From the NCBI GenBank assembly GCA_017303755.1, contig JAFLBS010000007.1, positions 92,470 to 156,469 on the forward strand: a stretch of 64,000 bases of DNA, written 5' to 3'. This DNA is from Flavobacteriales bacterium (GTDB lineage: Bacteria; Bacteroidota; Bacteroidia; Flavobacteriales; Flavobacteriaceae). The translations under genes and the position numbers were made by a program. The notes below the pieces were generated by a model. It was not told the origin of the DNA and ran no database searches. It saw only the letters and a list, made by a program, of their open reading frames with translations. Shown piece after piece: positions 17,166 through 34,826 of this stretch (position 1 is the first letter of the stretch; each line of letters begins with the position of its first letter).

Positions 17166-17169
17166 AAAG

Positions 17170-17817: not shown

Positions 17818-18030
17818 ATGAACTTAATTAAAAGAGCAAAAGCTCCGACACCAAAATTTTTTAAAGTGCTTCGAAATATTGGTTTGGCGTTGGCTGCCGT
17901 TGGTGGAACTATTTTAGCTGCTCCAATTGCTTTGCCTGTAATTGTAACTACCATTGGTGGTTATGTTGCGGTAGCTGGTGGAGTTTTGTCAGCTGCAAGT
18001 CAGCTTACTACAACTGATGACAGCCAATAA
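17818..18030 (+). CDS. Small hydrophobic holin-like membrane protein (70 aa)
   Basis: Basic N-terminus and two hydrophobic segments. ATG at 17818 preferred over the track's TTG at 17797. Confidence 0.6.
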   Translation: MNLIKRAKAPTPKFFKVLRNIGLALAAVGGTILAAPIALPVIVTTIGGYVAVAGGVLSAASQLTTTDDSQ

Positions 18031-18193
18031 TCCCACATTGATGGGAACTGCTGGAGGTACATTTTTAAGTATAGTACCGAATATTCATTCTGAAGACATT
18101 GCAAGAACAGTTATTTTAGCTACTGTTGGAGCTGTTGTCAGTTTTACGATTTCGTTACTGCTTAAGAGCATAAATAAGAAGCACAAAAAATAA
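18017..18193 (+). CDS. Small membrane protein, holin-like (58 aa)
   Basis: ATG at 18017 overlapping the previous gene, TM helix TVILATVGAVVSFTISLLL, basic tail KSINKKHKK. Confidence 0.6.
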   Translation: MTANNPTLMGTAGGTFLSIVPNIHSEDIARTVILATVGAVVSFTISLLLKSINKKHKK

Positions 18194-18234
18194 GTTTTGC
18201 CCTAGTTGTGGTGACCTTTGGGTTAAACAAAATG

Positions 18235-18264
18235 AAAGCCAAGTTATTAGACCTGGCTTTTTTT
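18235..18264 (+). terminator. Terminator of the 16012-18193 operon
   Basis: AAAGCCA...TGGCTTT stem followed by a T-run. Confidence 0.6.
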
Positions 18265-18454
18265 ATTCAGAGAGTTTTAAAATAATTTCAATCTTTTTAT
18301 TTCTATTATATTTTAGTCTTCCAAATTTTTCAATCGCTTTACCAAATTCATTCATTTTGGTATTAAAATCATGCCAATCCTTATCTAAATCACTTAATAA
18401 AGCCTTGTCTTTAGCATCATTAAGTTCAATTTCTTTTCTTTTTATTTCTTCCAT
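18263..18454 (-). CDS. Small hypothetical protein (63 aa)
   Basis: Open frame with coiled-coil-like composition directly downstream of the 18485 gene. No recognisable family. Confidence 0.4.
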   Translation of the reverse strand: MEEIKRKEIELNDAKDKALLSDLDKDWHDFNTKMNEFGKAIEKFGRLKYNRNKKIEIILKLSE

Positions 18455-18484
18455 TATTTTTAAATTAATTTATTCAAATTTAAT

Positions 18485-18904
18485 TTATTTAATATATCTG
18501 TGCAAAATAACTCTCCGCATATCATTGATAAGATTTAGATTTTCATGGAAACGTTTTTCGCTTTGTTCCAAAAGCTTTAAAGTTTCGATATTCTTAACGT
18601 GTTCCTTATGGTCTTTTATCTCTTGGTTGACTTTTATTGAAAATTCTTTTCTAATGTCGTATAAGCTCAAAAATGGGATTACTGAACCTCTAAGGAATTG
18701 ATGCCAAAATTTTGTTTTCCAAAGTGCATAAGCCGTTAAATTGATAGTGTCAAAATCAGATTCGTTTTCAAAAATGATAACAAAACTGTTTGTAAATGGC
18801 TCTATTTGTGGCTTTCCGCTGTTCATTCCTTTGTTAAGCAGGAATAAATGTGGTTTTGTGTAGATAGTTTCTTTTCTGTGGCTTTTAATGATAAATTTCA
18901 GCAT
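18485..18904 (-). CDS. DUF6943-like protein
   Basis: FLLNKGMNSGKP...FTNSFV...LRGSVIPFL pattern, typical of Bacteroidota mobile elements. Confidence 0.7.
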   Translation of the reverse strand: MLKFIIKSHRKETIYTKPHLFLLNKGMNSGKPQIEPFTNSFVIIFENESDFDTINLTAYALWKTKFWHQFLRGSVIPFLSLYDIRKEFSIKVNQEIKDHKEHVKNIETLKLLEQSEKRFHENLNLINDMRRVILHRYIK

Positions 18905-19046
18905 AACATCGGGTTTAAAAAATTAGATTAATTTTCAATTTTTTGTGGTGTTTCTTATGAAATGCAGTTGTGCCTCGCTACGCTCCGCCCATTAAAATTT
19001 TTCAAAAGAAAAAAAGAAAAAAAAGAAAGCCATTCGTCCAAGTGGA

Positions 19047-20306
19047 AGGTTTCAAAAAAGCAAGTTTTTCAGAAAAAATACTACCCGATAAGTGATTGAA
19101 ATCGTTAGCATCTAATCGAAAGTAGTATGTATTTTGAAACTGTTTGGGTGGAGATTTTTTCTGAAACCCGCAGGGCTTGAACTTGCTTTTTTGAATACCT
19201 GGAACTTATCTTTGCTTCCTTTTTTTTTTATTTATTTTGAAATTTCAATCTGTTGTTCTTATAAAATCGAAGTTGATTCTGAAGTAATGAGAGTTGAATT
19301 GGAAGATGTTCGTCTTCGGAAAGGGTATCAAATTCTTTGGATGGATGAATAAACCAAATCAGAAAATAAAAAAGCTATTCATCCGGCCAAAGAATTTGAT
19401 ACTCTTTCTTGGATTTGATTTTTGAGGATGCCTAAAAGTCAGTTGCAAGTGGCAGTGTTCAGTTAGCAGTTAATAATCTTATGGAAATGGGAAGCATCTT
19501 CAAAAAACAATGCATTATACTGCCGAGTGCGATGTGGCAGTAGCGCAAGTAAGGGTATCATTTTTTATTTGCTTATTGGGATGTTTCTGATTGCTTTAGT
19601 GGAAAAGCTGATGCCTGAAATTCAGTTGACAGTCGCAGTGTTCAGTATTCGGCAGATTATCTTAAAAAACGGTATGGCATCAGCTTTTTCGCTGGAGCAA
19701 TTATTACTTGTTTTCTGGCAAATAAAAAATGATACTCTTACTGGGGATTTTGGTTTTGTGGGTTCTAAAAATGGCTTTACCATAGGCAAATAATTAAAAG
19801 TTAAAGCCATTTTTAGAACTTACAAAAGCAATGAAAACACTTCCTATTTAAACGCAAAGTTGATAAAAACAGTTACCGTGAACGTTCATAAAAGCAATGG
19901 TAACCGAAACTATTCCTATGATATGGTAAATGTTCTTAAAGACAGTGGCGAAGGACGGTTTTTTTTGTAGCTGGGTGATGCGATGGGAGCTACAAAAAAA
20001 GTTGTCCTAGAGCCACTGGCACGAGCGTTGGGTGAGCGGCTTTTTTACATAATGTTATTATAGTGCATCCGAGATTTTGATTAGTAGCAGGATAGTCCCT
20101 ATGCACTATAATGCAACATTATGTAAAGAAGCTTGGGAAAAAAAATTACTGGCATGAGTTGCGAAGCGTACGTGTTTTTGTTTTGTGCGTTGGGCAAGCT
20201 CTTTGGCTGATGGCGTGCAGGATTTTTCAATTTACATATAATTTTCTTGCCATCAGGTAAAGTGCTTGATGAGCGTTGGGACAAAAACCATGACAGTAAT
20301 TTTTTT
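19047..20306 (+). other. Non-coding array of about eight long imperfect hairpins
   Basis: Stems: 19051-79/19154-95, 19323-51/19376-404, 19419-31/19494-506, 19589-615/19676-702, 19754-79/19802-27, 19943-72/19988-20018, 20039-68/20101-32, 20139-56/20289-306. Confidence 0.85.
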
Positions 20307-20335
20307 AGGAGCGTTGGGAAGGAGTGGCAATAAAG

Positions 20336-21262
20336 CTATAATTGAATATTTTTGATATAAAATCCTAACTCATATTCAATAGAATCACTCTCTAAATCAG
20401 GATCAATATCGATTTCTTTTAATACTAATTTATTATTTCTTGTGTCTGTATAAGAATCAATTGCTTTAGGGATTTCTATACCAGTAATATCTTCAATAAG
20501 AGAAATGTTAACTTGATAAGTGTCTGCATCTTTAAATTGCATAAAAAGTTGGTCTTCTGATTCTAATTCTTCTATAATATGATTTTCTTGAAGCAATTTA
20601 TTCTGGCTCATCATAAACCCGACCCTGTAAAGATTCCCATCTTCTTTTTGAAAAACAACGACTTTCCAAAACAGAGAAGGGATTTGTATTTGTTTACCAT
20701 TTATAGGTGTTACAAAATATGGATTTGAACTTAATAAAACTGGACCTGTAAAAACACAAATACGTAATTCATTTCGCTTTGTTTCAGTATGGAGTATGTA
20801 ATCCTCTAAACTTCGCCATATATCTCTATTTAAATCTTTGTGCTGTGGAACTGCATTCGTATAATAAAATGTTGAGTTAGCAGCATTTAAGGCTATCCCA
20901 GGAGTTTCTCCCCATTGTACGTCTTCCCGTTTAGTCATATGACCTTTGTCAAAATCACTTTTTAGGGCACTGTAGAGTTCTTTACCCATTTGAAACTCTT
21001 TGGATAATCTTGTGTCTTTTCGCCAATTATCCTTTCTTGGAACTTTCTTAAATTGAATTCCATCAATATTTGTTGCTGTATAGAATGGAAACTTGTGAGA
21101 TGCAGATTGTTGTAAACTGTAATTAATGTATTTTATAACTTTATTACCTTCATCATCTGAAACCAAATCATCATTTTGGTCTGAGCTAAGATTAGGTAAA
21201 AGTACCGTTTGGTTTGAGATGAATTGTTCATCATAACCTTGAAATAATTTTTCACTTATCAT
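20336..21262 (-). CDS. DNA/RNA non-specific endonuclease (NucA/EndoG His-Me finger), no signal peptide
   Basis: FDKGHMTKR, TFYYTNAVPQHKDLNRDIW..LEDY, VFTGPV, IPSLFWKVV. Confidence 0.93.
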   Translation of the reverse strand: MISEKLFQGYDEQFISNQTVLLPNLSSDQNDDLVSDDEGNKVIKYINYSLQQSASHKFPFYTATNIDGIQFKKVPRKDNWRKDTRLSKEFQMGKELYSALKSDFDKGHMTKREDVQWGETPGIALNAANSTFYYTNAVPQHKDLNRDIWRSLEDYILHTETKRNELRICVFTGPVLLSSNPYFVTPINGKQIQIPSLFWKVVVFQKEDGNLYRVGFMMSQNKLLQENHIIEELESEDQLFMQFKDADTYQVNISLIEDITGIEIPKAIDSYTDTRNNKLVLKEIDIDPDLESDSIEYELGFYIKNIQL

Positions 21263-21266
21263 AAAT

Positions 21267-22298
21267 TCAGTTTTTATGGTTGTCTTTTACAAATTGAATA
21301 ATTTTATTAATGAAAATACCTTCATTCCGTGATTTGATTCCTGTAGGAAGTTCTGGCTCTCCTGGTCTACTTCCACCTCCACTATGATGTAAAGCTACTA
21401 CTTCCCAATCTGAATTAAATACGGGAGAACCGGAAGATCCTTTTAATGTATCTGTGAGATATTGAACAACTCGGCTGTCTGTATGGGTTACGATGTTATG
21501 ATAAAGAGAAATTTGTTTCATTTCTCCTCCAGGATGCTGAATAATATTAACGAAATCATTTGGTTTTATTTCAACATCATTTAGTTCTATATATCCGTAT
21601 GAGTCTAATTCTCCTTGTTCATGAATGAGTTTACAAACTATTGTGTCATATTCATTTACAGTAGACCAATATATGGGTTTATTTTCATCAATATGGAAGC
21701 CTTTAGAAGGAATGCTGTTACCGTTTATATCCAATTCATAATCAAAAATAATTTTAGTTTTAGCAATGCGATTTTCATCTTTGATAACATGATAATTAGT
21801 AATAAAAAACAACTCATCGATGCCCTTCACCTTGAAGAGAAATCCGGTACCAACATCAAAACGATTGCTACCTACCTTAATTTCTACTTTTCCAACAGCT
21901 TTGCTTTTCTGAACTCCTTTTGCTAAAAAGTTAACAGGAAGCAAAGTACTACGCCCCATTGTCAAAACTTCTAGCGTTTCTTCAGCGACATCTTGCCATT
22001 TGGAAACTTTATCAATATCCGGGCTTAAAGAATAATCAATTTCTTTTGTAGCCAAAGCCGATTTTAAAAATGGATTATCAGGATAGGTGTCTAATACAGA
22101 TTTTACTAATTCATCAACTTTACTGTTCTTGTCTGCTTCACTTAGAACATTGCTCCAAACGTCCATAGCGTTACCACTTTCATTTATATGTTGTGGTTTC
22201 AGCCCTGCTGCTTTTACATATTTTGTGATTCCATCCTTATTAGGAACCAAGTCACTTAAAACATCATTTAATTGCGTAAGTTTTTTTGTCCAAGCCAT
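21267..22298 (-). CDS. EAD1-trypsin-like (V8-type) serine protease
   Basis: N-terminal ~80-aa EAD1-like domain. Catalytic triad TNYHVI, YDTIV, GSSGSPVF. Confidence 0.92.
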   Translation of the reverse strand: MAWTKKLTQLNDVLSDLVPNKDGITKYVKAAGLKPQHINESGNAMDVWSNVLSEADKNSKVDELVKSVLDTYPDNPFLKSALATKEIDYSLSPDIDKVSKWQDVAEETLEVLTMGRSTLLPVNFLAKGVQKSKAVGKVEIKVGSNRFDVGTGFLFKVKGIDELFFITNYHVIKDENRIAKTKIIFDYELDINGNSIPSKGFHIDENKPIYWSTVNEYDTIVCKLIHEQGELDSYGYIELNDVEIKPNDFVNIIQHPGGEMKQISLYHNIVTHTDSRVVQYLTDTLKGSSGSPVFNSDWEVVALHHSGGGSRPGEPELPTGIKSRNEGIFINKIIQFVKDNHKN

Positions 22299-22299
22299 T

Positions 22300-23445
22300 T
22301 TATATAAATATTTGTGGATAATCTACTGTTACTCTATCAACAAGGTTTTCTACCATTTCTTTTTTGATACACAAATCAATAAGTTGGGAAGACATATTGA
22401 CCGCCGAGTCTTCTACCAATAAAGAAACATTCACGCCAATTTTTTTTGCCAAAGTTCTAACTGATACACTGGATTGATAATATTGCGGAAGCTTTATCAT
22501 TAACTCTTCTACCGATTGCTCCTTGAAATATGCTCCGCGAATTCTCTCGTATAGTAAGTTTAGTTTTGCCTTTTCAGAAGTACTCGATAATTCTGATGGG
22601 CATAAATACCTAGATTCAAAAATTGGATTTACTATATTGGGATTTAAAAGGTATTCACCGTTTCGTCCTTCTTTCTTTGCATATTCTTTAAAGAAATGTT
22701 CAATTTCACTATTAACATTTTTCACTTTACTATCTGCCGTTACATATACAAAGTCATAAAAAAGACTATCTTGATATTCGTATTCCATTAAAGAAAAAGG
22801 ATGATAAGCGACAGGATAATTTCTTTCTAATACTTGGATTTTATCAATAGAATCAATTACCAAATATCCTCTGGGTATATCTTTGGTTGAAGCAAATTTT
22901 GATGCCCAGTAAATATCCATTGGTAGCCATTTAGCACCTCTAATCATAACGCAATCTCCTTGCTTGATTTTCAAATGATCGTAAACTTCAGGGAAGCATA
23001 ACAAAGGAATCCCAGTAGATGCATTACAACCAGCACTAACTGATAATAATACTTTTCTTTCATCAGTCGGTGGTAATAATAATGTACCTACACCTCCCAT
23101 CACTTTTTTAGATTTCCCAGGAGGATAAAACTCTATCCACTGCTTACTTTGTAAAGCAATATCTTCCATCTTATGCTGTCTTATTTGTTCTGATGATGGA
23201 GTCCAATAAAGTCCAGGAACACGAGCAACCCAATCGGAAACTACAAAATCGTATAAGTCAATTTTTTGGTTCCAATATTTAGTGGGATCAGCAATTACGT
23301 TTCTCCAAAACTCTTCATCATTAGAGAACCAAAAGTTTTCATAATTTGAAATATTTTCATTTAGAGAGTTTACTTCTTCAGCTAAAGCATAATTCTCTAT
23401 AGTTTCAATGAGTTTTGTTCCTTTGTATAATTCTTTTAGGCCCAT
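22300..23445 (-). CDS. Unknown ~305-aa domain with a C-terminal EAD1-like domain
   Basis: The last ~70 aa align by eye with the trypsin N-domain (L...YY...V..LAK.IG...LV..V..DYP). Confidence 0.7.
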   Translation of the reverse strand: MGLKELYKGTKLIETIENYALAEEVNSLNENISNYENFWFSNDEEFWRNVIADPTKYWNQKIDLYDFVVSDWVARVPGLYWTPSSEQIRQHKMEDIALQSKQWIEFYPPGKSKKVMGGVGTLLLPPTDERKVLLSVSAGCNASTGIPLLCFPEVYDHLKIKQGDCVMIRGAKWLPMDIYWASKFASTKDIPRGYLVIDSIDKIQVLERNYPVAYHPFSLMEYEYQDSLFYDFVYVTADSKVKNVNSEIEHFFKEYAKKEGRNGEYLLNPNIVNPIFESRYLCPSELSSTSEKAKLNLLYERIRGAYFKEQSVEELMIKLPQYYQSSVSVRTLAKKIGVNVSLLVEDSAVNMSSQLIDLCIKKEMVENLVDRVTVDYPQIFI

Positions 23446-23451
23446 AATCAG

Positions 23452-25989
23452 TTATGTTTTTATGAAGTTTTTTCTTAAATCATATATGATTTTAAACTTC
23501 TGGTTTTCCCCATATTGTTTTTTTACTTCTTTAAGTAAATTGTTCATTGTTATTTCTTTGAAGTGCTCCTTGCGTAATTTATAAAACACATTACTCCAAA
23601 TTTCGCTTGATGTTCCTTTTGCGAGTAGATCAGATTCTTTTCCTCCTGCCTTTTTCCAAATTGTTGTTAATGAAGTCCCATTTGGATATAGCTCAACAAT
23701 TAATTCTTCTGCACTTTGCCACCATTCATTTGTTGGAATACTAACTGAGGATAAAATACCTGAAAATGATAAAAGTCCTTTGGTTATAAAGTCAAGAAGG
23801 TGGTGACATTCTGCTAATGCAAATTTCCAATTATTGTTTTTGGAAGCTTTGGAATTAATTATATAAGTTGAATTGGAAAATCGTCTTTTTGCTATCAGTT
23901 GCCCCAATTGAGTCGCGTCAATAGAACTAATTTGTCCTGAAAAGTTATTCAAATAATCTCGAAGATTACTGTCGCTCAACTGAGAAAATCTATCAAATAC
24001 TTGAATTACAGATTTAAGATTATTTCTATTGAAATACAAGAAATCAGCGATGCCCTTTCTACTTATGTGATCCAACAAAACAGCATCATTAGGTATCTCA
24101 ATGGTTGAGTTTTTACTGAGTTGTTCAAGTAATTCAGCAGACGTTTTGATTAAGAAATTGTCTTTTGCAGATGAAGGAAATTTACCCCATAAAATAGTCC
24201 TATTAGGATACGTTAGTAGATTTCCAAATTCGGAGTGGGAAATTTTATTAATAAGTCTTTCAGAAACCACATTGCCACCAATAAGATGGTCAAACAATTT
24301 ATGTATTTCTTTTTGAGGCTCTTTTAAACCAGAATCCACTTGATTTCCATTTTCAATTGCCTCAGCCCAAATTAGCTGCCAGTTGTCATTTAAAACATCT
24401 ATTCTCTTCAGATTCTTAGATGAATAATGGCAGATTTTACCGGCAATTTTAATCATTCGAGATTCACCAGTATCAATAGCATAATCAACAATTGAGTTAT
24501 CATCTTTTCCTGTTACTATCGCCTCAACAGCTTCAAAATAATTTTCATCCTGATCAATTTTGAATAGTTCTGTTAGAGCAGTACCTAATTCAAATTGCCT
24601 ATCCAATAGATATGCGTATAACCTTAGCCAATTATTGCTAATAGAGAATTCTTGTAGTTCTTCAATAAGTTCCTTTGAAATTTTCTTAGGTAACTTTTCA
24701 ATAAAACAGCTTTCAGCATTTTTGGATTTGTCGATAAAAGATTTAATTATGGACAGAATGAATGGTGATTCCATTAACCAAGTGTAAACAATAGCAATCT
24801 TGGAAGCTTGAGCGGTTCCTAAGTAGGATTCAAGCTCTTGTGTTATTACTTTATCCCACCAATTCGGATTACTCTTTTTTACCTGCTCAAAAAATGAGGT
24901 ATATCCAACTGATTTATTTTCAAGTGAAAAAATATATTTCTTCATCCAGCCTATTAAAGCTGTTGATAAAGTTTTTTTTGAGTTCTTGAAGCTCTCCGTT
25001 TTGAAATTCCTTAATATATTTAGGTCAGAAAAGTTTGCCGATTCTGCTAATTGGACAATCTTATTTAATAATAGTTGCTTAAAATCTGTACCTTGTTTGT
25101 CCGAATGAGCATATTCTGCTACAATATGTGAAAGGGTATTTAGCTTTTTAAGATCTCTTACGCTGTCTAAGTGTTCAAAAGTATCAATACCTTTCGCTAT
25201 TAAGGCAATATCTTCTCGTGAAAGAGACTTTGATTCAATCGCTTTCTCGAAATTGCTAATACGTTGTTGAACGGACACATCACCAATTAATAATTGTTCT
25301 ATTAACTCGGTAGGTTCATGGTTGTCGTTCTTTCCAATAACAAAGAAGTCCGATCGGAGAAACTTGCTTTGAACACTTTCAGGTACAGCAATTAGGCTTA
25401 TGTGATTAGTTTCTTTATGGTCATTATTGAATGCAATACCAAACTGAAAATTTGGTCGTTCAATAACGGTTAGACGTTTCCACAACTCTATAACCGCTGT
25501 GTCAAAACCTTCCTGCCCAATCCATATTAATGTATTCTTATGGCTGTTTATGTTAATATAGCCATTAATAAGTTTGTTGAATTTGCCCCGAATAGCATCC
25601 GGTATACCGACGGCATCATTTGAGGACATTTCTATTGAAATCGGTTCCAGATCCGTACTCTTATTTATTTCTTGGGGTAATAGACTTATAATTTGCACTA
25701 TATTATCTATTTTTATTATTTCTTCTTTCTGAATCATCAGAACATGAGAATATTTCCTGCCTCTTCTTACATCAGGAGCTGTATCCTCAAATGTTTTCAT
25801 AATCAAAAAATAGTCTCCTTCCGAAAATCCGCGAATAGCAGGCTCCCAATTAACTCCACTAGTTTGATCTTGTAAATCCGTCCTAAAGGCAATGCTCTTA
25901 GCGATATTAACATCCGGCAAGGTAGTTTTTATTAAACCCCATGCTTTATTCACTTCTCCGCAAATGGATTGATGTATTATTACTTTCAC
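23452..25989 (-). CDS. GAP1-type (GTPase-associated protein 1) with a C-terminal EAD1-like domain
   Basis: N-terminal IHQSICGE..D...G..YFLIMKTF.D...RRGR..SHVL (GAP1-N1-like), long helical middle, C-terminal ELYPNG...IWKKAGG...IWSNV. Confidence 0.75.
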   Translation of the reverse strand: MKVIIHQSICGEVNKAWGLIKTTLPDVNIAKSIAFRTDLQDQTSGVNWEPAIRGFSEGDYFLIMKTFEDTAPDVRRGRKYSHVLMIQKEEIIKIDNIVQIISLLPQEINKSTDLEPISIEMSSNDAVGIPDAIRGKFNKLINGYININSHKNTLIWIGQEGFDTAVIELWKRLTVIERPNFQFGIAFNNDHKETNHISLIAVPESVQSKFLRSDFFVIGKNDNHEPTELIEQLLIGDVSVQQRISNFEKAIESKSLSREDIALIAKGIDTFEHLDSVRDLKKLNTLSHIVAEYAHSDKQGTDFKQLLLNKIVQLAESANFSDLNILRNFKTESFKNSKKTLSTALIGWMKKYIFSLENKSVGYTSFFEQVKKSNPNWWDKVITQELESYLGTAQASKIAIVYTWLMESPFILSIIKSFIDKSKNAESCFIEKLPKKISKELIEELQEFSISNNWLRLYAYLLDRQFELGTALTELFKIDQDENYFEAVEAIVTGKDDNSIVDYAIDTGESRMIKIAGKICHYSSKNLKRIDVLNDNWQLIWAEAIENGNQVDSGLKEPQKEIHKLFDHLIGGNVVSERLINKISHSEFGNLLTYPNRTILWGKFPSSAKDNFLIKTSAELLEQLSKNSTIEIPNDAVLLDHISRKGIADFLYFNRNNLKSVIQVFDRFSQLSDSNLRDYLNNFSGQISSIDATQLGQLIAKRRFSNSTYIINSKASKNNNWKFALAECHHLLDFITKGLLSFSGILSSVSIPTNEWWQSAEELIVELYPNGTSLTTIWKKAGGKESDLLAKGTSSEIWSNVFYKLRKEHFKEITMNNLLKEVKKQYGENQKFKIIYDLRKNFIKT

Positions 25990-26816
25990 AATAATGCCTG
26001 CTCTATTAGTTCTGTAATGTCATTTGTTTGGACGCCATCAGGCAATACTAAATATCCAAATTCTTCTGGTCCCTCAATCTGATATTTTTCTTTGTTCTCC
26101 GGTGTAGTCAGAGAAAACCCTTGAGCAGAAAGACCAACTAAGTTCAGATAATTTTCATCCCAGTTAGACTCCAAGAAGTTTAATAAAAGTGGTAATTTAG
26201 ATTGCAATACATTATAAGGCTTTTCTTCTGTATTCATTTCATCCCAGCAGGTTAAGACAATGGTCAACTTCGGCTTATCATTTACCTTATGGTAGTCTGT
26301 TCCTTTAGCATGTAAAAGGATTTGTAATAATTCGATAAAAAAGCTTTGATCCGATATTTTATACTCGGTTTCAGAAACCGGCTCTTTCGCATTTTTATGA
26401 TGTTGTTCAGAATAGGTAACATCACTGATATCTAAAGGCTTGTTTACATTATTTAACCTGATAAATAAAATCCAGCTGTTACTTTCCTGTATGGAAGCTG
26501 TCCATTCTTTATTTAACTCCCGATTTTCAACAATACTTAAAACCTGTTCTCCTCCATATTCGGGACATTTTAAATCAACCTGCTTTTCAGCTACCTGAAT
26601 AGGTAAGTAAAACTTCACACTTTTTTCAGATGGAGTTGTCTGTGGTTCTTCTCCTGATGCTAATGCTTCTCTTGCCCCGGAAATAGGAGATAGATCATCC
26701 ACTGATTTATAAAGCTTCAGCTTACTCTTATTTTTCTGCAATTTTGAGTAAAATTGTGAAAGGAATACTGTCTTGGATGAATGTGGTTTTCCGATAAGTA
26801 ATATAGATGTACCCAT
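25986..26816 (-). CDS. TRAFAC-clade GTPase domain protein, degenerate motifs
   Basis: G1 GKPHSSKT, G3 EYGGE, G4 TCWDE. Confidence 0.8.
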   Translation of the reverse strand: MGTSILLIGKPHSSKTVFLSQFYSKLQKNKSKLKLYKSVDDLSPISGAREALASGEEPQTTPSEKSVKFYLPIQVAEKQVDLKCPEYGGEQVLSIVENRELNKEWTASIQESNSWILFIRLNNVNKPLDISDVTYSEQHHKNAKEPVSETEYKISDQSFFIELLQILLHAKGTDYHKVNDKPKLTIVLTCWDEMNTEEKPYNVLQSKLPLLLNFLESNWDENYLNLVGLSAQGFSLTTPENKEKYQIEGPEEFGYLVLPDGVQTNDITELIEQALL

Positions 26817-27776
26817 TTATGTGCTTTTATAATTTAAGAAAATGTCATTTACCGTGCTATCATTTTCAATTAGAATTTCAGACTTGCTTACAGTAAACAC
26901 TCTGGAAAGTAGCCAGTCCAGTACAGCAATGTTGTTCTTATGAACTAATACATCAGGATCATCTGAAGAAAAATTACTGATATCTATCTCTTTATAGTTC
27001 TCAAAAAGTTCTTTCAACTCTCCTTGTAGCTTTTCTCGAATTACTGCATGCACTTCTTCTTTTTTATCACTTTTTGACCAAACAGCAATAACGGGTCTGT
27101 TTCTTATATCGTGCCTTAACATTTGTGCCATATCCACGATGTCAGTCTTTGCCAGAGCCTTTCTATTAATCAAATCATCACAATCAATAAAGAGTATAAA
27201 AGCATTTGAATGTTCATAAATCCATCTGGCATTCTCCGCGTTTTCATCATTACGATTTTTTGACCAAATAGAAAAAACCTCACCAGATGCATCAGATATT
27301 AAAATGTCTTTTAATTTTTTTTTCTGATTTCGTAATGCCAAATGCAATAAGCGGATGTATTGAGCGGGAGTAGGATCAGGAAATGTGACACCTTCTTGTT
27401 GAACCCTCAATTTTTGATATAATTCATCCCAAGCATTTATTGTTTGCGTACCGCAAAAGTCAAATTCTTTAAGTTTTATACCTCTAAGAAGTAATGTAAA
27501 AAGCATGGCGAGATATGTTGTTTTCCCTGCATCAGCTTTTCCTATTACACCGATGATTAGAGGGGTATTTCTATAGGTTATTTTGGGCAATTCATCTATA
27601 GTCAAAGCGTCCCCTGTCCATGGCAAATCGGATTTTTTCTCTTTTTTTGGAGCACTTTTGGTTTTGGATTGCGGTGCATTTGACTTCATCCAAAACTCAC
27701 ATTCCGTAGGCTTTTCTTTTCCTTCATGGCAACTGATTGGTGCAGCACAGTCAGGATTTGAACACTTTCCTGTCAT
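26817..27776 (-). CDS. TRAFAC-clade GTPase with a Cys-rich N-terminus
   Basis: G1 GKADAGKT, G2 PDPT, G3 DASGE, G4 SKSD. N-terminal C-x4-C-x5-CH-x8-C. Confidence 0.85.
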   Translation of the reverse strand: MTGKCSNPDCAAPISCHEGKEKPTECEFWMKSNAPQSKTKSAPKKEKKSDLPWTGDALTIDELPKITYRNTPLIIGVIGKADAGKTTYLAMLFTLLLRGIKLKEFDFCGTQTINAWDELYQKLRVQQEGVTFPDPTPAQYIRLLHLALRNQKKKLKDILISDASGEVFSIWSKNRNDENAENARWIYEHSNAFILFIDCDDLINRKALAKTDIVDMAQMLRHDIRNRPVIAVWSKSDKKEEVHAVIREKLQGELKELFENYKEIDISNFSSDDPDVLVHKNNIAVLDWLLSRVFTVSKSEILIENDSTVNDIFLNYKST

Positions 27777-27777
27777 A

Positions 27778-29025
27778 CTACTTTGTATTTAGAATTTTTA
27801 CTAATTGAAAGTCATGAAATAACCAAGTGGTCAACTCATTTGGAGCTAGTTTTATATTTAATCGTATCCCTACAAACTCTTCAAATTGAGCTAACTGATT
27901 TTTATTCCATATGAGCCCATTGATGAAGTTTAGCAATGTTGACTTTCCTGTCAATGCTTCAGTCTCGGGAAATATGGGTTTCAATTCCTCTGTATGCTCT
28001 TGAATAGATTTGAGAAAGTCTTCAAGGGTTAGTTCTTCCTTCGTACTTTCTTTTAATCCTTTATAAGTTTCTTTCAGAAAATAATCAACGCTTTTTGGGT
28101 AGATCACTGGGATAAAGATTGAATAATCATAAGCCAAGACTATTCCCAAAATACTTTTATCCAGTTCATCATAACTTCTATCTGTAGAGGCTGAATACCC
28201 AGCTTCTTTCCACCACAACAGTTCTGATCTTAGCTGTAATGATTTATTTCTATTCGAAACTTCCTTTTGTACTTGTTCTAATGCTTTATTTAAACTGTTT
28301 TGAATTGTGTTTTTATTCTCATTTACAACAGAAGCAATAGCTCTTAAGGAAGGATCTATTGCGCTTTTTATTCCTTGTGCAGCTTTGGGAGCAAATTGAT
28401 ATGACCAGTGTTGCCCTTGATTAGGCCAATATTGGTTAGGAGAATCGAAATTCGCAGTTCCCTGTGCATTGTGTTGTCCTGACGCATCTTCCAAGTGTTT
28501 TTGAAGCGTCTCTTTATTAATTAGGTAGGCTGAGATTTCCTTAAGTTCAAAACTAATTTTTGATAAGGAGTCACTGCCTGACAATACCCATTCTCTGTTA
28601 GCTTTTTGATTGATATCATTGCCCAACCTGGAAATAAACTCTAATATAATTTCTTTTTCTTTCCCAATCAGCTTATGATATTGAACAATGTTTCTGCTGG
28701 CAAACCAAATAAATAGGGAATGATTAACATCTTCGCTTATGCAGCTTAAAGCCTCCAACATAACCGCCCTAATATAGGTTAGAGGGGTGTCTTTTGCATT
28801 GGTAGCAAATGTGCTCCAATTCTTTATTATGACATCTTTGACTTCTACTATGTCAGCATTGTCAATAGAAGTATCAGTGTCAATTGCCGATAGTGTATAT
28901 GACACTATTTTAGCTTTACTTTTTGCCAATTTTTTAGAGATATCGTCGGCAGACTTTTTTAATTTTTTGAAATCGCCATCATCTGTTAGTGAGAGAAGAT
29001 TAGCGTTTAAGTAATTTTGTAGCAT
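27778..29025 (-). CDS. All-helical protein, GASH-like (GTPase-associated system)
   Basis: 415 aa, helical, ELLWWKEAGYS motif, immediately upstream of the GTPase pair. Confidence 0.7.
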   Translation of the reverse strand: MLQNYLNANLLSLTDDGDFKKLKKSADDISKKLAKSKAKIVSYTLSAIDTDTSIDNADIVEVKDVIIKNWSTFATNAKDTPLTYIRAVMLEALSCISEDVNHSLFIWFASRNIVQYHKLIGKEKEIILEFISRLGNDINQKANREWVLSGSDSLSKISFELKEISAYLINKETLQKHLEDASGQHNAQGTANFDSPNQYWPNQGQHWSYQFAPKAAQGIKSAIDPSLRAIASVVNENKNTIQNSLNKALEQVQKEVSNRNKSLQLRSELLWWKEAGYSASTDRSYDELDKSILGIVLAYDYSIFIPVIYPKSVDYFLKETYKGLKESTKEELTLEDFLKSIQEHTEELKPIFPETEALTGKSTLLNFINGLIWNKNQLAQFEEFVGIRLNIKLAPNELTTWLFHDFQLVKILNTK

Positions 29026-29034
29026 ATTTCTTTT

Positions 29035-31404
29035 TTAGTTTAATTGGTTATCTAAATTATTATTACTCTCAATTCTAACTTCTTCTCTAAGCTTAATATT
29101 GGAATGCAAGAAGTTTCTTTCGGCTAAAAGTCTTGATACTTCATTATATACCTGCTTTTGACCTTTTGTATCTCTAATGGTTACGATAAGCGTAAAATCT
29201 TGATTTAATTCTTCACCATCTTGTATGGCTAATGTTTCTGCAAAATCTCTATAAGTTCCTTTGATTTTAGCATACCATTTTCTGTTTCCTGCCAAACTAT
29301 CACGTTGTCTAGCATCTTTCATTTCGCTTAGATTAACCGAATATTTTTTTACTGGTTGGTATTTTTTACCATAATTGAGCAGCACTCTTTCACGAGCATA
29401 TTCGCTTTCGGTATCTTTGATATGTGCACTTTTGTAATTTGAATCAAGTAGAACATTTTGAGTGTCGTCTGGACCAATTTCATTGAGAATATTAGCTTTG
29501 GTTGTGTCTCGTTCTTTTATATTTTCATAAGTACCAAACATTAACTCTAAATTTGATTGACAATATTCTGCACCTTGCTTTTCTCTCAATACTGGTTGGC
29601 CGACTAACGTTATTTTAATTTCTCCATAGAAAAAGCCATCATCATCAATTAAACTTTCGGGAAAAGGAAATTCTAATATTTCAATAAATTCTCCACGAGT
29701 AATATTCTCTTGCAATATCAATGTAATTTCATGAGGATCATTGTAAATAATTTCATCAGCTGAATCAGGAATACCAAATCCCATTTGATTTACTCTTTCA
29801 CTTATAGGAAGACTTATTCCTGTTGGATATTTTGCAGAATGAATGGCTAAAGCTTTTAAAAGAGTAGGATTAAAAGTTTCATTAATTTTAAAATTTAATT
29901 CCGACAATAATGAAGTTACTCTTGGTGTAGCAAAACTAGTCCCAATAATTTTTACTGAATTTCCATTGTGAGCAATAGCGTTTACACCATTTTCAATTCT
30001 TCTTCCATCTTTAATACCTGCATTTCCACCAAATGATACTATATCTGGTTTGATGCTATTAGCTGGACCTGGACCAATTCTAGTAAATGGTGATGGATGA
30101 TTTATATCCGCAATATCATGAGTGTTTTTTGAATGAGCGACTGAGCCAACCACTAATGAGCGAACTGAATCGCCCGACCTTGCTACTCTGCTTTTGGGAT
30201 ATCCTTTTTCAAAGTTTCTGCAATTACCAGCCGATTTGCAAATAATTACATCATTAGTAATCTGAATATCGTCTAATGCCTTACCAAAATCTGAAAAATC
30301 ATTAATGTCTGATTCAGCAGCAGTACCTAATGACAAATTCCAAATTTTGATATGATTATTCTCCTTTATGGCTTCTCTAATATTTTCTACTAATTCATCT
30401 TCATCTATTGATTCTTGTTTTTGATCTGGGAATACTGTGGCATCAAAAATTTTGCACCCTGAATTTCCTGTCCAATTTTCACCTTGTAATTGATCTCCAT
30501 AAAGAATTATACTCGATACGCAAGAACCGTGCATTGGGTCAATTAACTCGTCCGGATATGAGGAAAATTTATCATCCAATAGCCAAGGTGCTAAATATGG
30601 ATTTTTAGATACTCCTGTATCTAAAACCCCAATAGTTGGATATTCGACGCCTGCAGTAGGTGTTTTTATATCAACAGTATTCTCAGATTCCATACTATCT
30701 GTTTCTACTTGATATTTTGGCATAAAAGTTATAGACTCTAATGCTTCAAAGTCAGAAATACTATCTAAAACTGCTTGCGAGGCATTTTTTATTTTAAATA
30801 TTATTAGTCCTGGAGAATAATTTACTTCTTTTACTTCTATGCCAAATTCATTGCAATATTTGATAAAAGCAATTTTGACAGCATTATTAACTTCGTAATT
30901 CAGAAAGTCAATTAATGAGATTTTGACTGTTTGGTTTTCTTCAATATCTACAATAAATGGTTTGAATACTTCTATTGATTCGATAGCAGAAATACCACGT
31001 GGATTTTTAAGATAATTGGATATATTGTTTTTTATTTGTAAACCTTCTTCAATACTGTCAACCTTAACAATTGCGCTATTTGAATCAAGAAAACCAATAA
31101 TATTGTTTTTGGTTACTTTACCATTGAAGATTTTCTGAATGTCTTTTCTATGTGATTTAGCAATTGCATTGTCATCAATATCAATTTTAAGTGTAGCGGG
31201 AATAAAACTTCTTGAAGTATTACGTTTTTGAAATACCTCAATTAATTCATTAATAGGTTCCATGAAGCTTTCAGCTCTTTCTGCAAGTAATTGTCCAGAC
31301 AACTCCCATTTAGGTATATTATCATTACCACCACCTTCAACTCTACGGTCGTCTATTTTTTGCCTTTTTTGAAAAAGCTTAATTGGTAAATTCTTCTTTG
31401 CCAT
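29035..31404 (-). CDS. ietS: S8 subtilisin-like protease, IetS-like
   Basis: VLDTG, HGSCVSS, GTSFATP triad. No signal peptide. Coupled to an AAA ATPase. Confidence 0.85.
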   Translation of the reverse strand: MAKKNLPIKLFQKRQKIDDRRVEGGGNDNIPKWELSGQLLAERAESFMEPINELIEVFQKRNTSRSFIPATLKIDIDDNAIAKSHRKDIQKIFNGKVTKNNIIGFLDSNSAIVKVDSIEEGLQIKNNISNYLKNPRGISAIESIEVFKPFIVDIEENQTVKISLIDFLNYEVNNAVKIAFIKYCNEFGIEVKEVNYSPGLIIFKIKNASQAVLDSISDFEALESITFMPKYQVETDSMESENTVDIKTPTAGVEYPTIGVLDTGVSKNPYLAPWLLDDKFSSYPDELIDPMHGSCVSSIILYGDQLQGENWTGNSGCKIFDATVFPDQKQESIDEDELVENIREAIKENNHIKIWNLSLGTAAESDINDFSDFGKALDDIQITNDVIICKSAGNCRNFEKGYPKSRVARSGDSVRSLVVGSVAHSKNTHDIADINHPSPFTRIGPGPANSIKPDIVSFGGNAGIKDGRRIENGVNAIAHNGNSVKIIGTSFATPRVTSLLSELNFKINETFNPTLLKALAIHSAKYPTGISLPISERVNQMGFGIPDSADEIIYNDPHEITLILQENITRGEFIEILEFPFPESLIDDDGFFYGEIKITLVGQPVLREKQGAEYCQSNLELMFGTYENIKERDTTKANILNEIGPDDTQNVLLDSNYKSAHIKDTESEYARERVLLNYGKKYQPVKKYSVNLSEMKDARQRDSLAGNRKWYAKIKGTYRDFAETLAIQDGEELNQDFTLIVTIRDTKGQKQVYNEVSRLLAERNFLHSNIKLREEVRIESNNNLDNQLN

Positions 31405-31405
31405 C

Positions 31406-32494
31406 TTATTCTACATTTAAAGCGTTCCTAACTTGTCTAATTGAAATATCTAAATAACTTGCTATTTGTTTCTGTGGTATATGACTTTCGTTTAAAAACT
31501 TAATCATTTCCTCTGGAAGAAATCTGTTGTTGTTTTTGTATTTAAAATATTCAGAAAAGATATCTTCATATTCAAAAACTGATTTTTTTATGATTGAATT
31601 ATAATATGCACTATTAATGATTTTAATAATCTCAGAATGTGATAAATTGCTCATATAAGTTTTAACCATTTCAAATTTTTTATCATCTGTCGCTAAATCA
31701 GAACCAATTTTATCAAAATAGTTCTCTACAAGATTTTTTATTTCATCAGAATTTGGTTTGTTTACATTTACGACTTTTTCAAATCTTCTCCAAATTGCAC
31801 TATCTAGCAATTGTTCGTGATTAGTTGCCGCAATCAATATCCCTGTTTCTAGAAATTCATCTATATTTTGTAAAAGACTATTAATTACCCTTTTTAATTC
31901 TCCGGTTTCTTGATTATCGTCTCTCGCTTTTGCTATAGCATCAAACTCATCTAAGAACAAAATGCAAGGCTTACTTTTTGCGTAATCGAATAATTTCCTA
32001 ATATTCTTTGCTGTACTACCTAATAGGGAAGAAATTAAAGAATCAAAACGCGCTACTACAATTGGAATATCTAGCTCTTTAGCAATATGTTTGGCTAATG
32101 TTGTCTTTCCACAACCTGGAGGGCCATAAAGTAAAAGAGAAAGATTAATGTCTAAACCTTTACTTTTAATTTCATTTTTAGAATTTACTAATGAAATAAA
32201 ATTATTTATTGGCTCAACAATACCCTCTGAAACTATTATATCAAACTTTATGTCTTGAGGCAATATAATATCAGCAATATTTAGCCTTGTGTCATTATCT
32301 ACAGGCGCATCAAATAATTGATCTTTAAAAACAGGCATGCCTTTAGCTCCTTGGATTGTTTTCAAAATTTTGTCAGCTAATTTACTATCACCATCATCTC
32401 TTAATTTTTTTGCTAAATGATTGGAGTAATTAATTACCTTTTTATGATCATTATTCAATCCACCTTCAATTATTTTTATTAGTTCTGTATACAT
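31406..32494 (-). CDS. ietA: AAA+ ATPase, IetA-like
   Basis: GPPGCGKT, LFLDEFD, ATNH, AIWRRF. Directly upstream of the S8 protease. Confidence 0.88.
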   Translation of the reverse strand: MYTELIKIIEGGLNNDHKKVINYSNHLAKKLRDDGDSKLADKILKTIQGAKGMPVFKDQLFDAPVDNDTRLNIADIILPQDIKFDIIVSEGIVEPINNFISLVNSKNEIKSKGLDINLSLLLYGPPGCGKTTLAKHIAKELDIPIVVARFDSLISSLLGSTAKNIRKLFDYAKSKPCILFLDEFDAIAKARDDNQETGELKRVINSLLQNIDEFLETGILIAATNHEQLLDSAIWRRFEKVVNVNKPNSDEIKNLVENYFDKIGSDLATDDKKFEMVKTYMSNLSHSEIIKIINSAYYNSIIKKSVFEYEDIFSEYFKYKNNNRFLPEEMIKFLNESHIPQKQIASYLDISIRQVRNALNVE

Positions 32495-32523: not shown

Positions 32524-32531
32524 CAAATATA
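32524..32531 (-). promoter_or_regulatory. -7 promoter box of the defence operon
   Basis: TATATTTG on the minus strand, ~30 nt upstream of ietA. No well-spaced -33 box. Confidence 0.5.
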
Positions 32532-32629
32532 ATTAAAAGTGTAATACAAAATAATAAAAACGTAATATTATTTTATTAAATCGTAATTTAATTATTTAAA
32601 AGCGTTGTTAAATAAGCGTTTAGCGTGAT

Positions 32630-33262
32630 TTATAAGTTCAAATTCACATTATCGATATAAAACTGTAATTCGTATAAATGAATAAGCTCTTCATGGTTAT
32701 TAGGCATTTGAGCTAGTTGTACGAAATTGATGTTTTGATATACTGATTTCTCACCCAATAAATCCTGTATTATGATGTAGATGGCTTGTTCCCACGTTTT
32801 GGTGTTGCAATAGAGTTTGAAGTTTTTTAGATACACCGTTATATCTAATTTTTTAGTTTGCTCGTCATAATTGAGCGGTAGGAATTTGATTTCACTGGTT
32901 TTGATTGTTATTTCTTGGAATACATAGGGTTCGTCTAATCCTTCTATGATTTTGTCAATGCTATCAGTTGGTTGGATGAAAGCTGTGAACTTCCAATGTC
33001 TTAAGGCAGGTGCTTTTTTGATTAATTCGGTTACTTGAGCAAAGTATTCCGGATTGCCATTGGCCGTAATGATTAATTCGGCTTTTTCCTTTTCTTTCTT
33101 GGGAAATATTATTAAAAAATCTAATTCCTTGCAGTAATAGCCCAAATGTCTGTTTAGCCAAAAGTAGAGGTGCTTTTGCGTTTTTGGTGTTTCGTTGATT
33201 AGGTTTTTGATGGTTTGGTTGTTGTCTTGGAACCAGTTCCAGAAGGTGTTTATTTTTCTCAT
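32630..33262 (-). CDS. Conserved hypothetical protein (210 aa)
   Basis: FWNWF...ELIITANGN...APALRHWKFTAF. Clean ORF, function unclear. Confidence 0.75.
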   Translation of the reverse strand: MRKINTFWNWFQDNNQTIKNLINETPKTQKHLYFWLNRHLGYYCKELDFLIIFPKKEKEKAELIITANGNPEYFAQVTELIKKAPALRHWKFTAFIQPTDSIDKIIEGLDEPYVFQEITIKTSEIKFLPLNYDEQTKKLDITVYLKNFKLYCNTKTWEQAIYIIIQDLLGEKSVYQNINFVQLAQMPNNHEELIHLYELQFYIDNVNLNL

Positions 33263-33316: not shown

Positions 33317-33928
33317 TTAGCGTTTATCTGGAGTTGCTTTATCGAATGCGATGAGGTTTAGCATGGCTCTAAATCTTGAGCGCACACGATTGCCATAAAT
33401 GGTTTCAATTTCGGAAGCGGAGAGATTGGTAGTTATGTGTGTTTTGATTTTTCTTGAAACAAACAAATCGTATCTTGACAATAAGATTTCTGCCATAACA
33501 TTACATTCGTTACCATAATATTTAAGATTGCTTTCTACTCCTAAATCATCAAAGCAGTAGTTTTTATATTCGGTTTGTGAGTAGCTGCCACGACTGTATC
33601 GGTGAATGATTTCATAGCCCTCTTTTATGAATTCAAAGCTGATGTCTCGGCACGTTTTTACATAGAATTTGTTTTCTTTTGGAACTACATATTTCATTAA
33701 ATTCATCAATGTTGTTTTACCGCATCCTACTGGTCCGGAAAGTAAAATGCCTTTGGTTACATCAATGTTGAATTGATTTGTCATGTGTTGATCATTGAGA
33801 AAATATGCTACAAGCTTTGTAATATTTTGAATGTCATTTTCTATAAAATGGAATTTATCTCCGTAGTCTATCTTGCCTTTATTTTCAAGCCATAACAGAA
33901 TTTCCGGATAGTTATATTGTTCATTCAT
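33317..33928 (-). CDS. DnaC/IstB-like P-loop ATPase (helicase-loader type)
   Basis: GPVGCGKT, CFDDLGVE, THITTNLS...YGNRVRSR. Follows the initiator gene. Confidence 0.85.
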   Translation of the reverse strand: MNEQYNYPEILLWLENKGKIDYGDKFHFIENDIQNITKLVAYFLNDQHMTNQFNIDVTKGILLSGPVGCGKTTLMNLMKYVVPKENKFYVKTCRDISFEFIKEGYEIIHRYSRGSYSQTEYKNYCFDDLGVESNLKYYGNECNVMAEILLSRYDLFVSRKIKTHITTNLSASEIETIYGNRVRSRFRAMLNLIAFDKATPDKR

Positions 33929-34001: not shown

Positions 34002-34826
34002 TCATAGCGGTTCCGCATAATCTTTATCTTCAATGGTGTGCAGATTATTGGCTCTTGGTTGCTCTCTGACGGAATTAGTTTGTGGAAGATTGATTGTAAA
34101 CTTTGTAGTGTTTAACATCCAGTTTCTAGCTGAAGCTTGCCAATCTATCATTTTGGTTTTACCACCAATTAACCAACCATTACTGGTGTAGTAATTATAA
34201 AATCGCTCCGCTTCGAATTCTGAATATTCTTGTTGTTTGAAGTATTCTTTTATTTGTTCCAAACTAGGTTTCACTATTGAACTCGAAATGACAAACTTTT
34301 CTCTTTTTTTCGCGGAACTTTTTTTCTCTTTTTGAGCATCATCTAAAAAATCTTCTTGATTAAAAATTTCAAAATTGGTGTCCATAGATATGTTTTCATT
34401 GTTTTTAAATGTTTTTATAGTATTATATATATTGGGTTCATTAACTTGTTCAGCATCCTTACTATTGACTTGTTCATTTATTGGTATTGTTGGCTCAATG
34501 ATTGAACTGGTTGGCACTTTTTTGAAATAACTTCCTTCCGCTAGGTTGTGTATTATTACTTCGGTGCCGGAATATGGATTATAGGAAGGTAAATACTGAA
34601 TGAAACCCATTAATTCCAATTCTTTGATACACTTGTGATAGGTTGCTTTGGAAGCAATTCTGCTGGCTTTCATCATTTCATCACGAGAAATAGTAATTGG
34701 GTTTTTGAATCGATTTACATTCCAACTTTGAAATAGTGCCAAATACAAGCTTATATGAGTTGGGTAAATTATTTCTTCATTGGCTATTCTGATGAAGAAG
34801 CCTGTTAGGTGTTTGATGTAGTTCAT
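34002..34826 (-). CDS. Phage-type replication initiator (wHTH N-domain, conserved C-domain)
   Basis: N-terminal wHTH, low-complexity linker, C-terminal FYNYYTSNGW...DWQASARNW. Paired with the DnaC-like ATPase. Confidence 0.7.
   Translation of the reverse strand: MNYIKHLTGFFIRIANEEIIYPTHISLYLALFQSWNVNRFKNPITISRDEMMKASRIASKATYHKCIKELELMGFIQYLPSYNPYSGTEVIIHNLAEGSYFKKVPTSSIIEPTIPINEQVNSKDAEQVNEPNIYNTIKTFKNNENISMDTNFEIFNQEDFLDDAQKEKKSSAKKREKFVISSSIVKPSLEQIKEYFKQQEYSEFEAERFYNYYTSNGWLIGGKTKMIDWQASARNWMLNTTKFTINLPQTNSVREQPRANNLHTIEDKDYAEPL

Follow-up and report, generated by a model that had tools for sequence, protein, structure and literature searches.

A seven-gene GAP1-N1 GTPase-type conflict module with an EAD1-linked protease cassette, and a neighbouring IetAS pair, in a Flavobacteriales genomic island

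Conflict systems centred on GTPases and GAP1-N1 proteins, designated 'System 2, subsystem 1', were described from computational analysis by Kaur, Burroughs, Iyer and Aravind (2020, eLife; PMC7159879, sections 27-28), together with the principle that effector-associated domains (EADs) serve as death-domain-like homotypic adaptors recruiting proteases and effectors (PMC7159879); for these systems in particular, the recruitment of effectors by homotypic EAD1 contacts was predicted (PMC7159879, section 28), and for the NucA-peptidase systems of the same survey ('System 3'), the proteolytic deployment of NucA (PMC7159879, sections 30, 32). Since 2020 both the GTPase-centric systems and the EAD principle have remained predictions from computation, and the literature searched yielded no experimental test of either. 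A third relevant class, IetAS, is a self-contained toxin-antitoxin-like defence pair in which the protease is the toxin and the ATPase the antitoxin; it was originally described as stabilising plasmids, its anti-phage mechanism is still not known, and in the case of ietHAS it has acquired an extra essential module (PMC13069673). Components of all three classes are found together in a 64,000-nucleotide stretch (hereafter the window) of a Flavobacteriales bacterium (GenBank assembly GCA_017303755.1, contig JAFLBS010000007.1, positions 92,470 to 156,469), where nine minus-strand open reading frames (ORFs) fill positions 20336-32494 and encode an IetAS pair followed by GASH, two DO-GTPases, GAP1, a 381-amino-acid protein of an unnamed family (here P381), an EAD1-trypsin and a NucA-type nuclease.

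An initial annotation, made from the sequence alone, had read these nine ORFs as a single defence operon. Their co-orientation and spacing of -4 to +9 bp are borne out by the ORF coordinates, with intergenic gaps of 1, 9, 1, 0, -4, 6, 1 and 4 bp, and every gene name was reproduced with Pfam, PADLOC and NCBIfam profiles (Table 1); the absence of signal peptides agrees with a Kyte-Doolittle scan, a crude test, in which the top 19-residue hydrophobicity was 1.69 and no clear membrane segment was seen in the nine proteins. The unit itself is redefined here as seven genes rather than nine: comparison with related loci argues for two separate defence systems lying head to tail, with IetAS as an apparently exchangeable neighbour in a defence hotspot.

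Relatives were gathered through homologues of P381, comprising 41 loci of species-representative genomes and several metagenome contigs, and all ORFs of the collected loci were searched with profiles of the nine window proteins. The seven-gene module, from GASH to NucA, is carried by 15 of the 41 genome loci (14 Bacteroidota and one metagenome-assembled genome, MAG, labelled Parachlamydiaceae), and the order GASH, DO-GTPase2, DO-GTPase1, GAP1, P381, EAD1-trypsin, NucA is kept in 14 of the 15, the P381 gene of Algoriphagus having been relocated behind NucA. Cultured carriers are Flavobacterium hydatis DSM 2063, F. subsaxonicum DSM 21790 (partly masked), F. collinsii, F. notoginsengisoli, Chryseobacterium sp. 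BLS98, Algoriphagus locisalis DSM 23445 and Elizabethkingia meningoseptica, the assembly of the last, found by exact-protein look-up, having the same seven genes; further carriers are MAGs of Crocinitomicaceae, Chitinophagaceae, Paludibacter and Fluviicola. Synteny across Bacteroidota, proposed with the initial annotation as a check, is kept, without IetAS: IetS was found within 10 kb of the module in none of the 15 genome loci and in none of 45 related loci (L001-L045), and these comparisons give no functional tie between IetAS and the genes downstream.

The boundary between the two systems is directly observed in the DNA. Homology to all seven-gene relatives ends at 29026-29043, coinciding with the GASH start codon, and metagenome and metatranscriptome contigs part from the window sequence at 29026. 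The closest relative, a MAG (locus L005) with 90.6% nucleotide identity over 18501-29038, carries in the IetAS slot (2613-4416 of that locus) a DUF6577 protein and an AbiEii nucleotidyltransferase toxin, ending 4 bp before GASH; in another genome the slot holds AAA_21 and RloB, ending 5 bp before GASH, and in a third an Eco57I/helicase protein. The claim that the nine genes form one system does not survive the swapping of this slot, the homology break and the seven-gene composition in 15 genomes, and the case illustrates that close spacing and a common promoter are insufficient to call adjacent defence genes one system.

The first of the two systems is an ordinary IetAS pair, with an AAA+ ATPase gene, a 1-bp gap, an S8 protease gene of ~790 amino acids and full-length PADLOC matches. 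Walker A (GPPGCGKT) and Walker B (ILFLDEFD) motifs are present in IetA; its match to NCBIfam IteA scores 354 bits, under the 510-bit equivalog cut-off, and that of IetS to NCBIfam IteS 365 bits, under a cut-off of 900 bits, and the window pair would represent a divergent subfamily since both proteins fall below these cut-offs. Position alone ties it to the genes that follow, and a 45%-identical IetS with its ATPase on a Hymenobacter plasmid has downstream genes unrelated to those of the window.

Its sequence features place the seven-gene unit clearly in the GAP1-N1 'GTPase-centric' class. GASH is accompanied by a pair of paralogous DO-GTPases, one of them bearing a zinc ribbon at its N-terminus; the GAP1 gene, encoding the GAP1-N1 domain, lies downstream of the DO-GTPases; EAD1 is found on both the GAP1 C-terminus and the trypsin; and the host belongs to Bacteroidota. 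Profile scores for GAP1 are well above the cut-offs, for the N-terminal domain (Pfam accession: PF20012; 7.8e-21, 74.7 bits against 27) and for EAD1 (Pfam accession: PF19955; 1.5e-8, 35.4 bits against 24.2), and the overlap of 4 bp between the GAP1 start and the DO-GTPase1 stop belongs to an order that is the same in 15 genomes. Among 16 sequences, the zinc-ribbon residues C5, C10, C16, H17 and C26, the P-loop residues G79/K85/T86 and E166 of DO-GTPase2 are invariant, as are the P-loop residues G9/K15/T16 and E90 of DO-GTPase1, E90 and E166 being assigned to Walker B by sequence position. As the initial annotation had stated, this configuration of GAP1, paired GTPases and GASH with EADs is computationally described (PMC7159879), and a literature search found no experimental study of such systems; the EAD1-recruitment mechanism that it offered is a restatement of the prediction of Kaur et al. 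The architecture itself would be unsurprising to specialists. The published effector list comprises calcineurin-like phosphoesterase, PNPase, TIR, SLATT, trypsin, caspase, alpha/beta-hydrolase and DNA glycosylase (PMC7159879); in contrast, NucA and P381 are not among the effectors in the main text of that paper, the source data of which may tabulate this layout.

Within the module, GASH and GAP1 are the fastest-diverging components. Compared with the closest relative (L005), GAP1 is 83% identical overall, with ~17% difference in the middle and an almost unchanged EAD1; the trypsin catalytic domain is 81% identical, with as many as 13 of 25 residues changed within 175-250 and an unchanged EAD1; and the genes neighbouring GAP1 and trypsin are 94-98% identical. 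Recombination confined to these regions, or selection for diversity acting on the sensor and on the body of the protease, may explain this excess divergence. In a Fluviicola MAG (positions 4373-13137 of its locus), identity to the window is 27-34% for the core and 53-62% for the cassette, a mosaic that fits the swapping of core and output arm as separate blocks.

Three EAD1-type domains are observed in the module, and the initial annotation had described those of GAP1, P381 and the trypsin as mutually alignable, a description that holds in part. The trypsin N-terminus (PF19955; 2.2e-10, 41.3 bits, cut-off 24.2) can be aligned to the GAP1 C-terminus without an intermediate (BLASTP 3e-8; hhalign 95.9%). 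The P381 C-terminus gave no BLASTP match to either, and PF19955 does not match the window P381 even at E<=10; its relationship to the trypsin domain emerges by profile, using a P381 profile built solely from full-length family homologues and clean of cross-contamination from shared EAD1 and trypsin-NucA fusions. Positions 311-380 of this family hidden Markov model match window trypsin residues 5-74 (E 4e-6 in a search of 47 sequences) and likewise match trypsins of other phyla; hhalign of the P381 tail against the trypsin EAD1 gives 97.2% (E 3e-11), and eleven helical segments from GASH and GAP1 used as controls give <=1.4%. A family member at 37% identity (P0130) has a precomputed Pfam EAD1 match, and a more distant one (P0259) reaches threshold. 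The P381 tail thus shows homology at profile level, lies at the end of the protein and has a gene with a matching EAD next to it; it is a real but divergent third EAD1, linked to that of GAP1 only via the trypsin domain, so that the three-way alignment is transitive. Among remote relatives, the P381-type N-domain is joined to EAD7, EAD1 or a TIR domain (the last in P0288), EAD7 being regarded as EAD1-related by Kaur et al. (PMC7159879). The gene following one EAD7-tailed relative (P0256, locus L050) also starts with EAD7, and another (P0257, locus L051) sits behind a CHAT protease; since the EAD types of the partners match and the protease folds differ, the EAD tail would appear to pair the P381-type protein with its protease.

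Catalytic residues are intact in the trypsin, NucA and both GTPases, and the enzymes accordingly look active. The trypsin (Pfam accession: PF13365; 2.6e-19) has a triad of H170/D218/S289 that is invariant, together with D283, in 31 sequences from several phyla; D283 lies six residues before the catalytic serine and, if it acts as Asp189 does in trypsin, would make the enzyme prefer sites after Arg or Lys. In NucA, D105, G107, H108, R112, E113, N136 and N145 do not vary among 15 sequences, and an acidic C-terminal tail (residues 266-296) is conserved, following a conserved arginine. The combination of NucA with a trypsin-like peptidase, one trypsin being EAD1-fused, is shared with the NucA-peptidase systems (PMC7159879), and the window NucA shares 33% identity with the nuclease half of one trypsin-NucA fusion (locus L039); the window differs in having a single free trypsin and a free NucA, with no fusions, no transmembrane segment and neither an S8 peptidase nor a second trypsin in the module, and in the subordination of the cassette to the GTPase/GAP1 core. 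The Bacteroidota module looks like a GAP1-N1 core that captured a NucA-peptidase output cassette via EAD1, the output arm joining two previously described systems and an unnamed conserved family.

The most constant feature of this output arm is the pairing of P381 with the trypsin: its gene lies directly upstream of EAD1-trypsin in 36 of the 41 genome loci, and in 38 the two share a cluster. The pair is found beside trypsin-NucA fusions, in loci of the NucA-peptidase 'System 3' type (Mesorhizobium, a Hyphomicrobiales MAG, a Granulosicoccaceae MAG), adjoining a trypsin-PLD fusion (Fimbriiglobus MAG), near a trypsin-S8 fusion (Chitinophagales MAG) and behind CHAT and S8 peptidases on a Sinorhizobium plasmid; metagenome contigs have it ahead of TIR, SIR2 and nSTAND1 genes, or of EAD1-GIFT and EAD1-TPR. 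The proposition of the initial annotation that the trypsin unleashes the nuclease is probably incomplete, since the constant partner of the trypsin across phyla is P381, not NucA, whose place elsewhere is taken by TIR/SIR2/nSTAND1, by EAD1-GIFT and EAD1-TPR proteins or by a PLD fusion. A broader proposal, advanced tentatively and with less than even confidence, is that the P381 family and an EAD-tagged protease form a portable output cassette, which would plug by matching EADs into at least four unrelated cores (GAP1-N1 GTPases, NucA-peptidase systems, STAND/TPR proteins and TIR-SIR2-nSTAND1), in which case P381 would be one more kind of latent effector, or of adaptor, licensed by a protease.

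P381 falls into no family of Pfam, NCBIfam or PADLOC, and Pfam searches of both halves at E<=10 returned nothing relevant, Trypco1/2 included. The family is small and uniform, with 673 clusters (50% identity) at E<=1e-3 among 1.84 billion representatives, its members nearly all 375-400 amino acids long and matching end to end, and few parts of the module are as conserved as P381; invariant residues, including R75, K111, S112, N141, S143 and H215, lie in Gly/Pro-rich loops. AlphaFold2 modelling with a cross-phylum alignment (predicted local distance difference test, pLDDT, 82.8; predicted template modelling score 0.75; a shallow alignment gave pLDDT 61.7) yields a confident model, in which the N-domain is rich in beta structure and the tail helical. 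Foldseek retrieved no structure, solved or viral, at E<=1e-3, and the top ranks for both models are oligonucleotide/oligosaccharide-binding (OB) folds, namely RPA70N, MCM10-ID, POT1, Teb1, SSB and PriB, over 70-96 columns, tentatively placing the N-domain among OB-like barrels. A canavalin match from a profile search of PDB sequences is attributed to chance (E 1.3), and a role for P381 as a NuiA-like, NucA-specific inhibitor is unlikely, given that it accompanies trypsin in loci without NucA. Genes beside defence proteases have been found to code for latent effectors, which become active when cut at a specific site (Evans et al. 2025, bioRxiv 10.1101/2025.11.14.688446). P381 resembles such protease-effector modules (with MBL, alpha/beta-hydrolase, Pepco/Trypco1-2, EACC1 and other effectors) in being a conserved gene just upstream of a trypsin-like defence protease, and in the attachment of the protease pair to many different sensors; it differs in matching none of those families in Pfam and in having an EAD domain of its own. 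By this analogy, P381 fits the pattern of a protease-associated latent effector, and is the most likely missing link from protease to effector; were it a cleaved effector or licensing adaptor, it would bring a new class into the protease-gated defence modules now under study.

The reading favoured here, with moderate confidence, is of two independent defence systems among the cargo of an integrase-bearing island, in a Flavobacteriia-like host from activated sludge, the second of which would pass from a GTPase switch through EAD1 assembly and protease activation to a latent effector or nuclease, and so to abortive infection. GASH, the zinc-ribbon DO-GTPase2, DO-GTPase1 and GAP1 would constitute the sensor and switch, and P381, EAD1-trypsin and NucA the output arm. 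An invader cue would shift the GTPase pair to another nucleotide state and bring about a conformational change in GAP1 and GASH; the GAP1 EAD1 would nucleate EAD1-EAD1 assemblies gathering trypsin and P381; and the trypsin, active by proximity, would cut a latent effector, either P381 or the acidic C-terminal tail of NucA, or both. The tail may be an inhibitory piece taken off by the protease, leaving NucA to degrade nucleic acids non-specifically, such that the infected cell would die or stall; P381 is the better-supported candidate for cleavage because it is the constant neighbour of the trypsin. An analogy between adaptor-driven protease activation with nuclease release and animal apoptosis has been drawn previously (PMC7159879 and PMC8195603), and the module shares with death-fold logic a small helical homotypic adaptor on both switch and protease, and a NucA/EndoG-type end nuclease; it differs in having no sequence-level membership, and in a switch made of a GTPase pair and GAP1 rather than a STAND ATPase.

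Several points weigh against this scheme. The trigger, the direction of signalling, the cleaved target and the outcome are all steps that we infer. The P381 EAD1 reaches only 8% against the GAP1 EAD1 in hhalign, which is not significant, and the three-way EAD1 assembly is an assumption because a direct match between these two domains is lacking; NucA itself carries no EAD1. The invariant polar residues of the P381 N-domain could mean that it acts as a sensor or an enzyme and is not a substrate, and its OB-fold likeness is weak (best Foldseek E 1.8e-3 and 0.039). The 9-bp gap between IetS and GASH, with a single promoter motif, may signify a shared transcript and a possible interaction of both systems, and the RNA support described below consists of assembled metatranscriptome contigs of a variant, in which DNA carry-over is possible.

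A role for P381 as the sensor is unlikely, although it fares best among the alternatives: its OB-like N-domain would bind a cue such as phage single-stranded DNA and its EAD1 would license the trypsin, the core setting a threshold or providing a second input. The best Foldseek ranks in both models are indeed single-stranded-DNA-binding OB folds, but the matches are weak, none at <=1e-3. The occurrence of the P381/trypsin pair with many cores, and even without a recognisable one, would suit a sensor, as would the fusion of the N-domain to a TIR effector in one relative, an arrangement typical of sensor-effector proteins; however, P381 is highly conserved while GAP1 and GASH vary, the opposite of what is usual for sensors in an arms race, and its invariant Gly/Pro-rich loops resemble an active site or a fixed interface more.

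Service to the mobile island, as an addiction or stabilisation module or one for kin conflict or programmed death, instead of anti-phage immunity, is quite improbable for the seven genes. Across genomes, their neighbours are defence genes (IetAS, AbiE, restriction-modification-like, RloB/AAA_21, SIR2 with HerA), and seven genes with two GTPases far exceed the regulation that addiction needs, against which stand the tyrosine integrase, RteC and excisionase-type helix-turn-helix protein of the island, the transposase and integrase adjoining the Elizabethkingia module, the first description of IetAS as a plasmid-stabilising toxin-antitoxin pair (PMC13069673), and the typical toxin character of a cytoplasmic non-specific nuclease; the two roles are not mutually exclusive.

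Integration of all nine genes into one system, with IetAS cooperating with the GTPase core and EAD1-linked effectors, is highly improbable, since the 9-bp IetS-GASH gap, the sole promoter motif before IetA, the lack of a minus-strand terminator and the capacity of IetAS to gain extra essential modules such as ietHAS (PMC13069673) are set against the absence of IetS from 15 of 15 seven-gene loci, the homology break at the GASH start, the AbiE-like pair that in the 91% relative also lies 4 bp from GASH (tight upstream spacing being the rule here), and the other neighbours of the Hymenobacter plasmid pair, with IetAS itself free of EAD1.

The single -7 box that the initial annotation placed ahead of the cluster is found as one promoter-like motif before IetA, with none within the cluster: the consensus TTTG-N15-23-TAnnTTTG has one minus-strand occurrence in 18.5-37 kb, at 32524-32550, and is not significantly enriched across the whole window (17 found against 11 expected). 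No minus-strand terminator-like site was seen inside the cluster, and co-transcription of all nine genes is plausible from the arrangement of the 9-bp gap, single motif and uninterrupted cluster. The exact sequence is present in activated-sludge metagenomes, and wastewater metatranscriptome contigs of a ~95% identical variant span all seven genes (20344-29026), running past 29026 into sequence matching the AbiEii gene of the closest relative; this suggests that the seven-gene module is transcribed in nature, with read-through from whatever gene sits upstream. RNA over the IetS-GASH junction was not found, the window variant occurring only in DNA runs and the RNA runs being of the AbiE-type variant. 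The compactness of the Flavobacterium/Elizabethkingia module and its cultivable hosts recommend it as a test bed for the idea of EAD recruitment.

Table 1. Window coordinates of the two systems, their boundary and associated island genes.
Feature	Position	Strand	Evidence and remarks
Bacteroidota-type promoter-like motif (TTTG-N15-TATATTTG)	32524..32550	-	30 bp before IetA ATG; consensus match only
IetA, AAA+ ATPase (system 1)	31406..32494	-	PADLOC IetA 4e-135; Pfam AAA 1.6e-35
IetS, S8 subtilase (system 1)	29035..31404	-	PADLOC IetS PDLC02201 1119 bits, positions 1-781/781; Pfam Peptidase_S8 1e-29
System boundary, end of DNA homology to all seven-gene relatives	29026..29043	.	blastn ends of L001, L003, L005, L008, L010, L014
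GASH helical protein, first gene of seven	27778..29025	-	Pfam PF19994 3.4e-85, 1-397/398
DO-GTPase2 with N-terminal zinc ribbon	26817..27776	-	Pfam PF19993 1.8e-57
DO-GTPase1	25986..26816	-	Pfam PF19975 2e-78
GAP1	23452..25989	-	GAP1-N1 residues 5-104; long variable middle; C-terminal EAD1 753-836 (nt 23482-23733)
P381 (381-amino-acid protein)	22300..23445	-	beta-rich N-domain ~1-285; divergent EAD1 ~312-378 (nt 22312-22512)
EAD1-trypsin	21267..22298	-	EAD1 residues 6-81 (nt 22056-22283); Trypsin_2 150-303 (nt 21390-21851)
NucA-type non-specific endonuclease, no EAD1	20336..21262	-	Pfam PF01223 (Endonuclease_NS) 3.1e-41
DUF5675 protein	16770-17165		
DUF6943 protein	18485-18904		
Excisionase-type HTH_17	34965-35252		
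RteC	35366-36214		

The defence genes are flanked by a tyrosine integrase (13780-15018), DUF5675, DUF6943, the excisionase-type HTH_17 protein and RteC, and because the window contains no conjugation genes, the element is taken to be an integrase-bearing island and not an integrative and conjugative element. DNA similarity to the closest relative extends over 15438-29038 and resumes at 33324-33755. Defence genes neighbour the seven-gene module in four genomes, a context that may point to a role in conflict with invaders. In a Crocinitomicaceae MAG (locus L003, 16460-21155), the module is followed by a 928-residue TPR-like protein, an HNH protein and a SIR2 and HerA pair, and is part of a larger defence island.

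Downstream of NucA, a 1.4-kb non-coding spacer (18905-20335) is rich in long inverted repeats, with arms of 25-33 nt at 19319-19408, 19750-19831, 19548-19742 and 20039-20132, and has a repeated GAGCGTTGGGA motif; it is ~90% conserved in the closest relative, and Rfam gave no family at threshold for it, only sub-threshold miRNA-like hairpin matches. One metagenome contig has 20154-20281 swapped for 30 other bases. Between IetA and the HTH_17 and RteC genes lie three small genes (32630-33262, 33317-33928 and 34002-34826), two without a Pfam match and the third a weak AAA_5-like P-loop protein conserved in the closest relative.

A second tyrosine integrase (59683-60939) lies beside a tRNA-Ser(TGA) gene (61200-61285), a sign that an attachment site or a further integrated element may be present; the two integrases are alike, both matching the same region of locus L032. 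To the right of the island, 36276-49700 holds apparently ordinary chromosomal genes, among them alpha/beta hydrolases, DUF3108 proteins, a beta-lactamase-family protein (38359-39702) and three secreted proteins sorted by the type IX secretion system (43672-48636).

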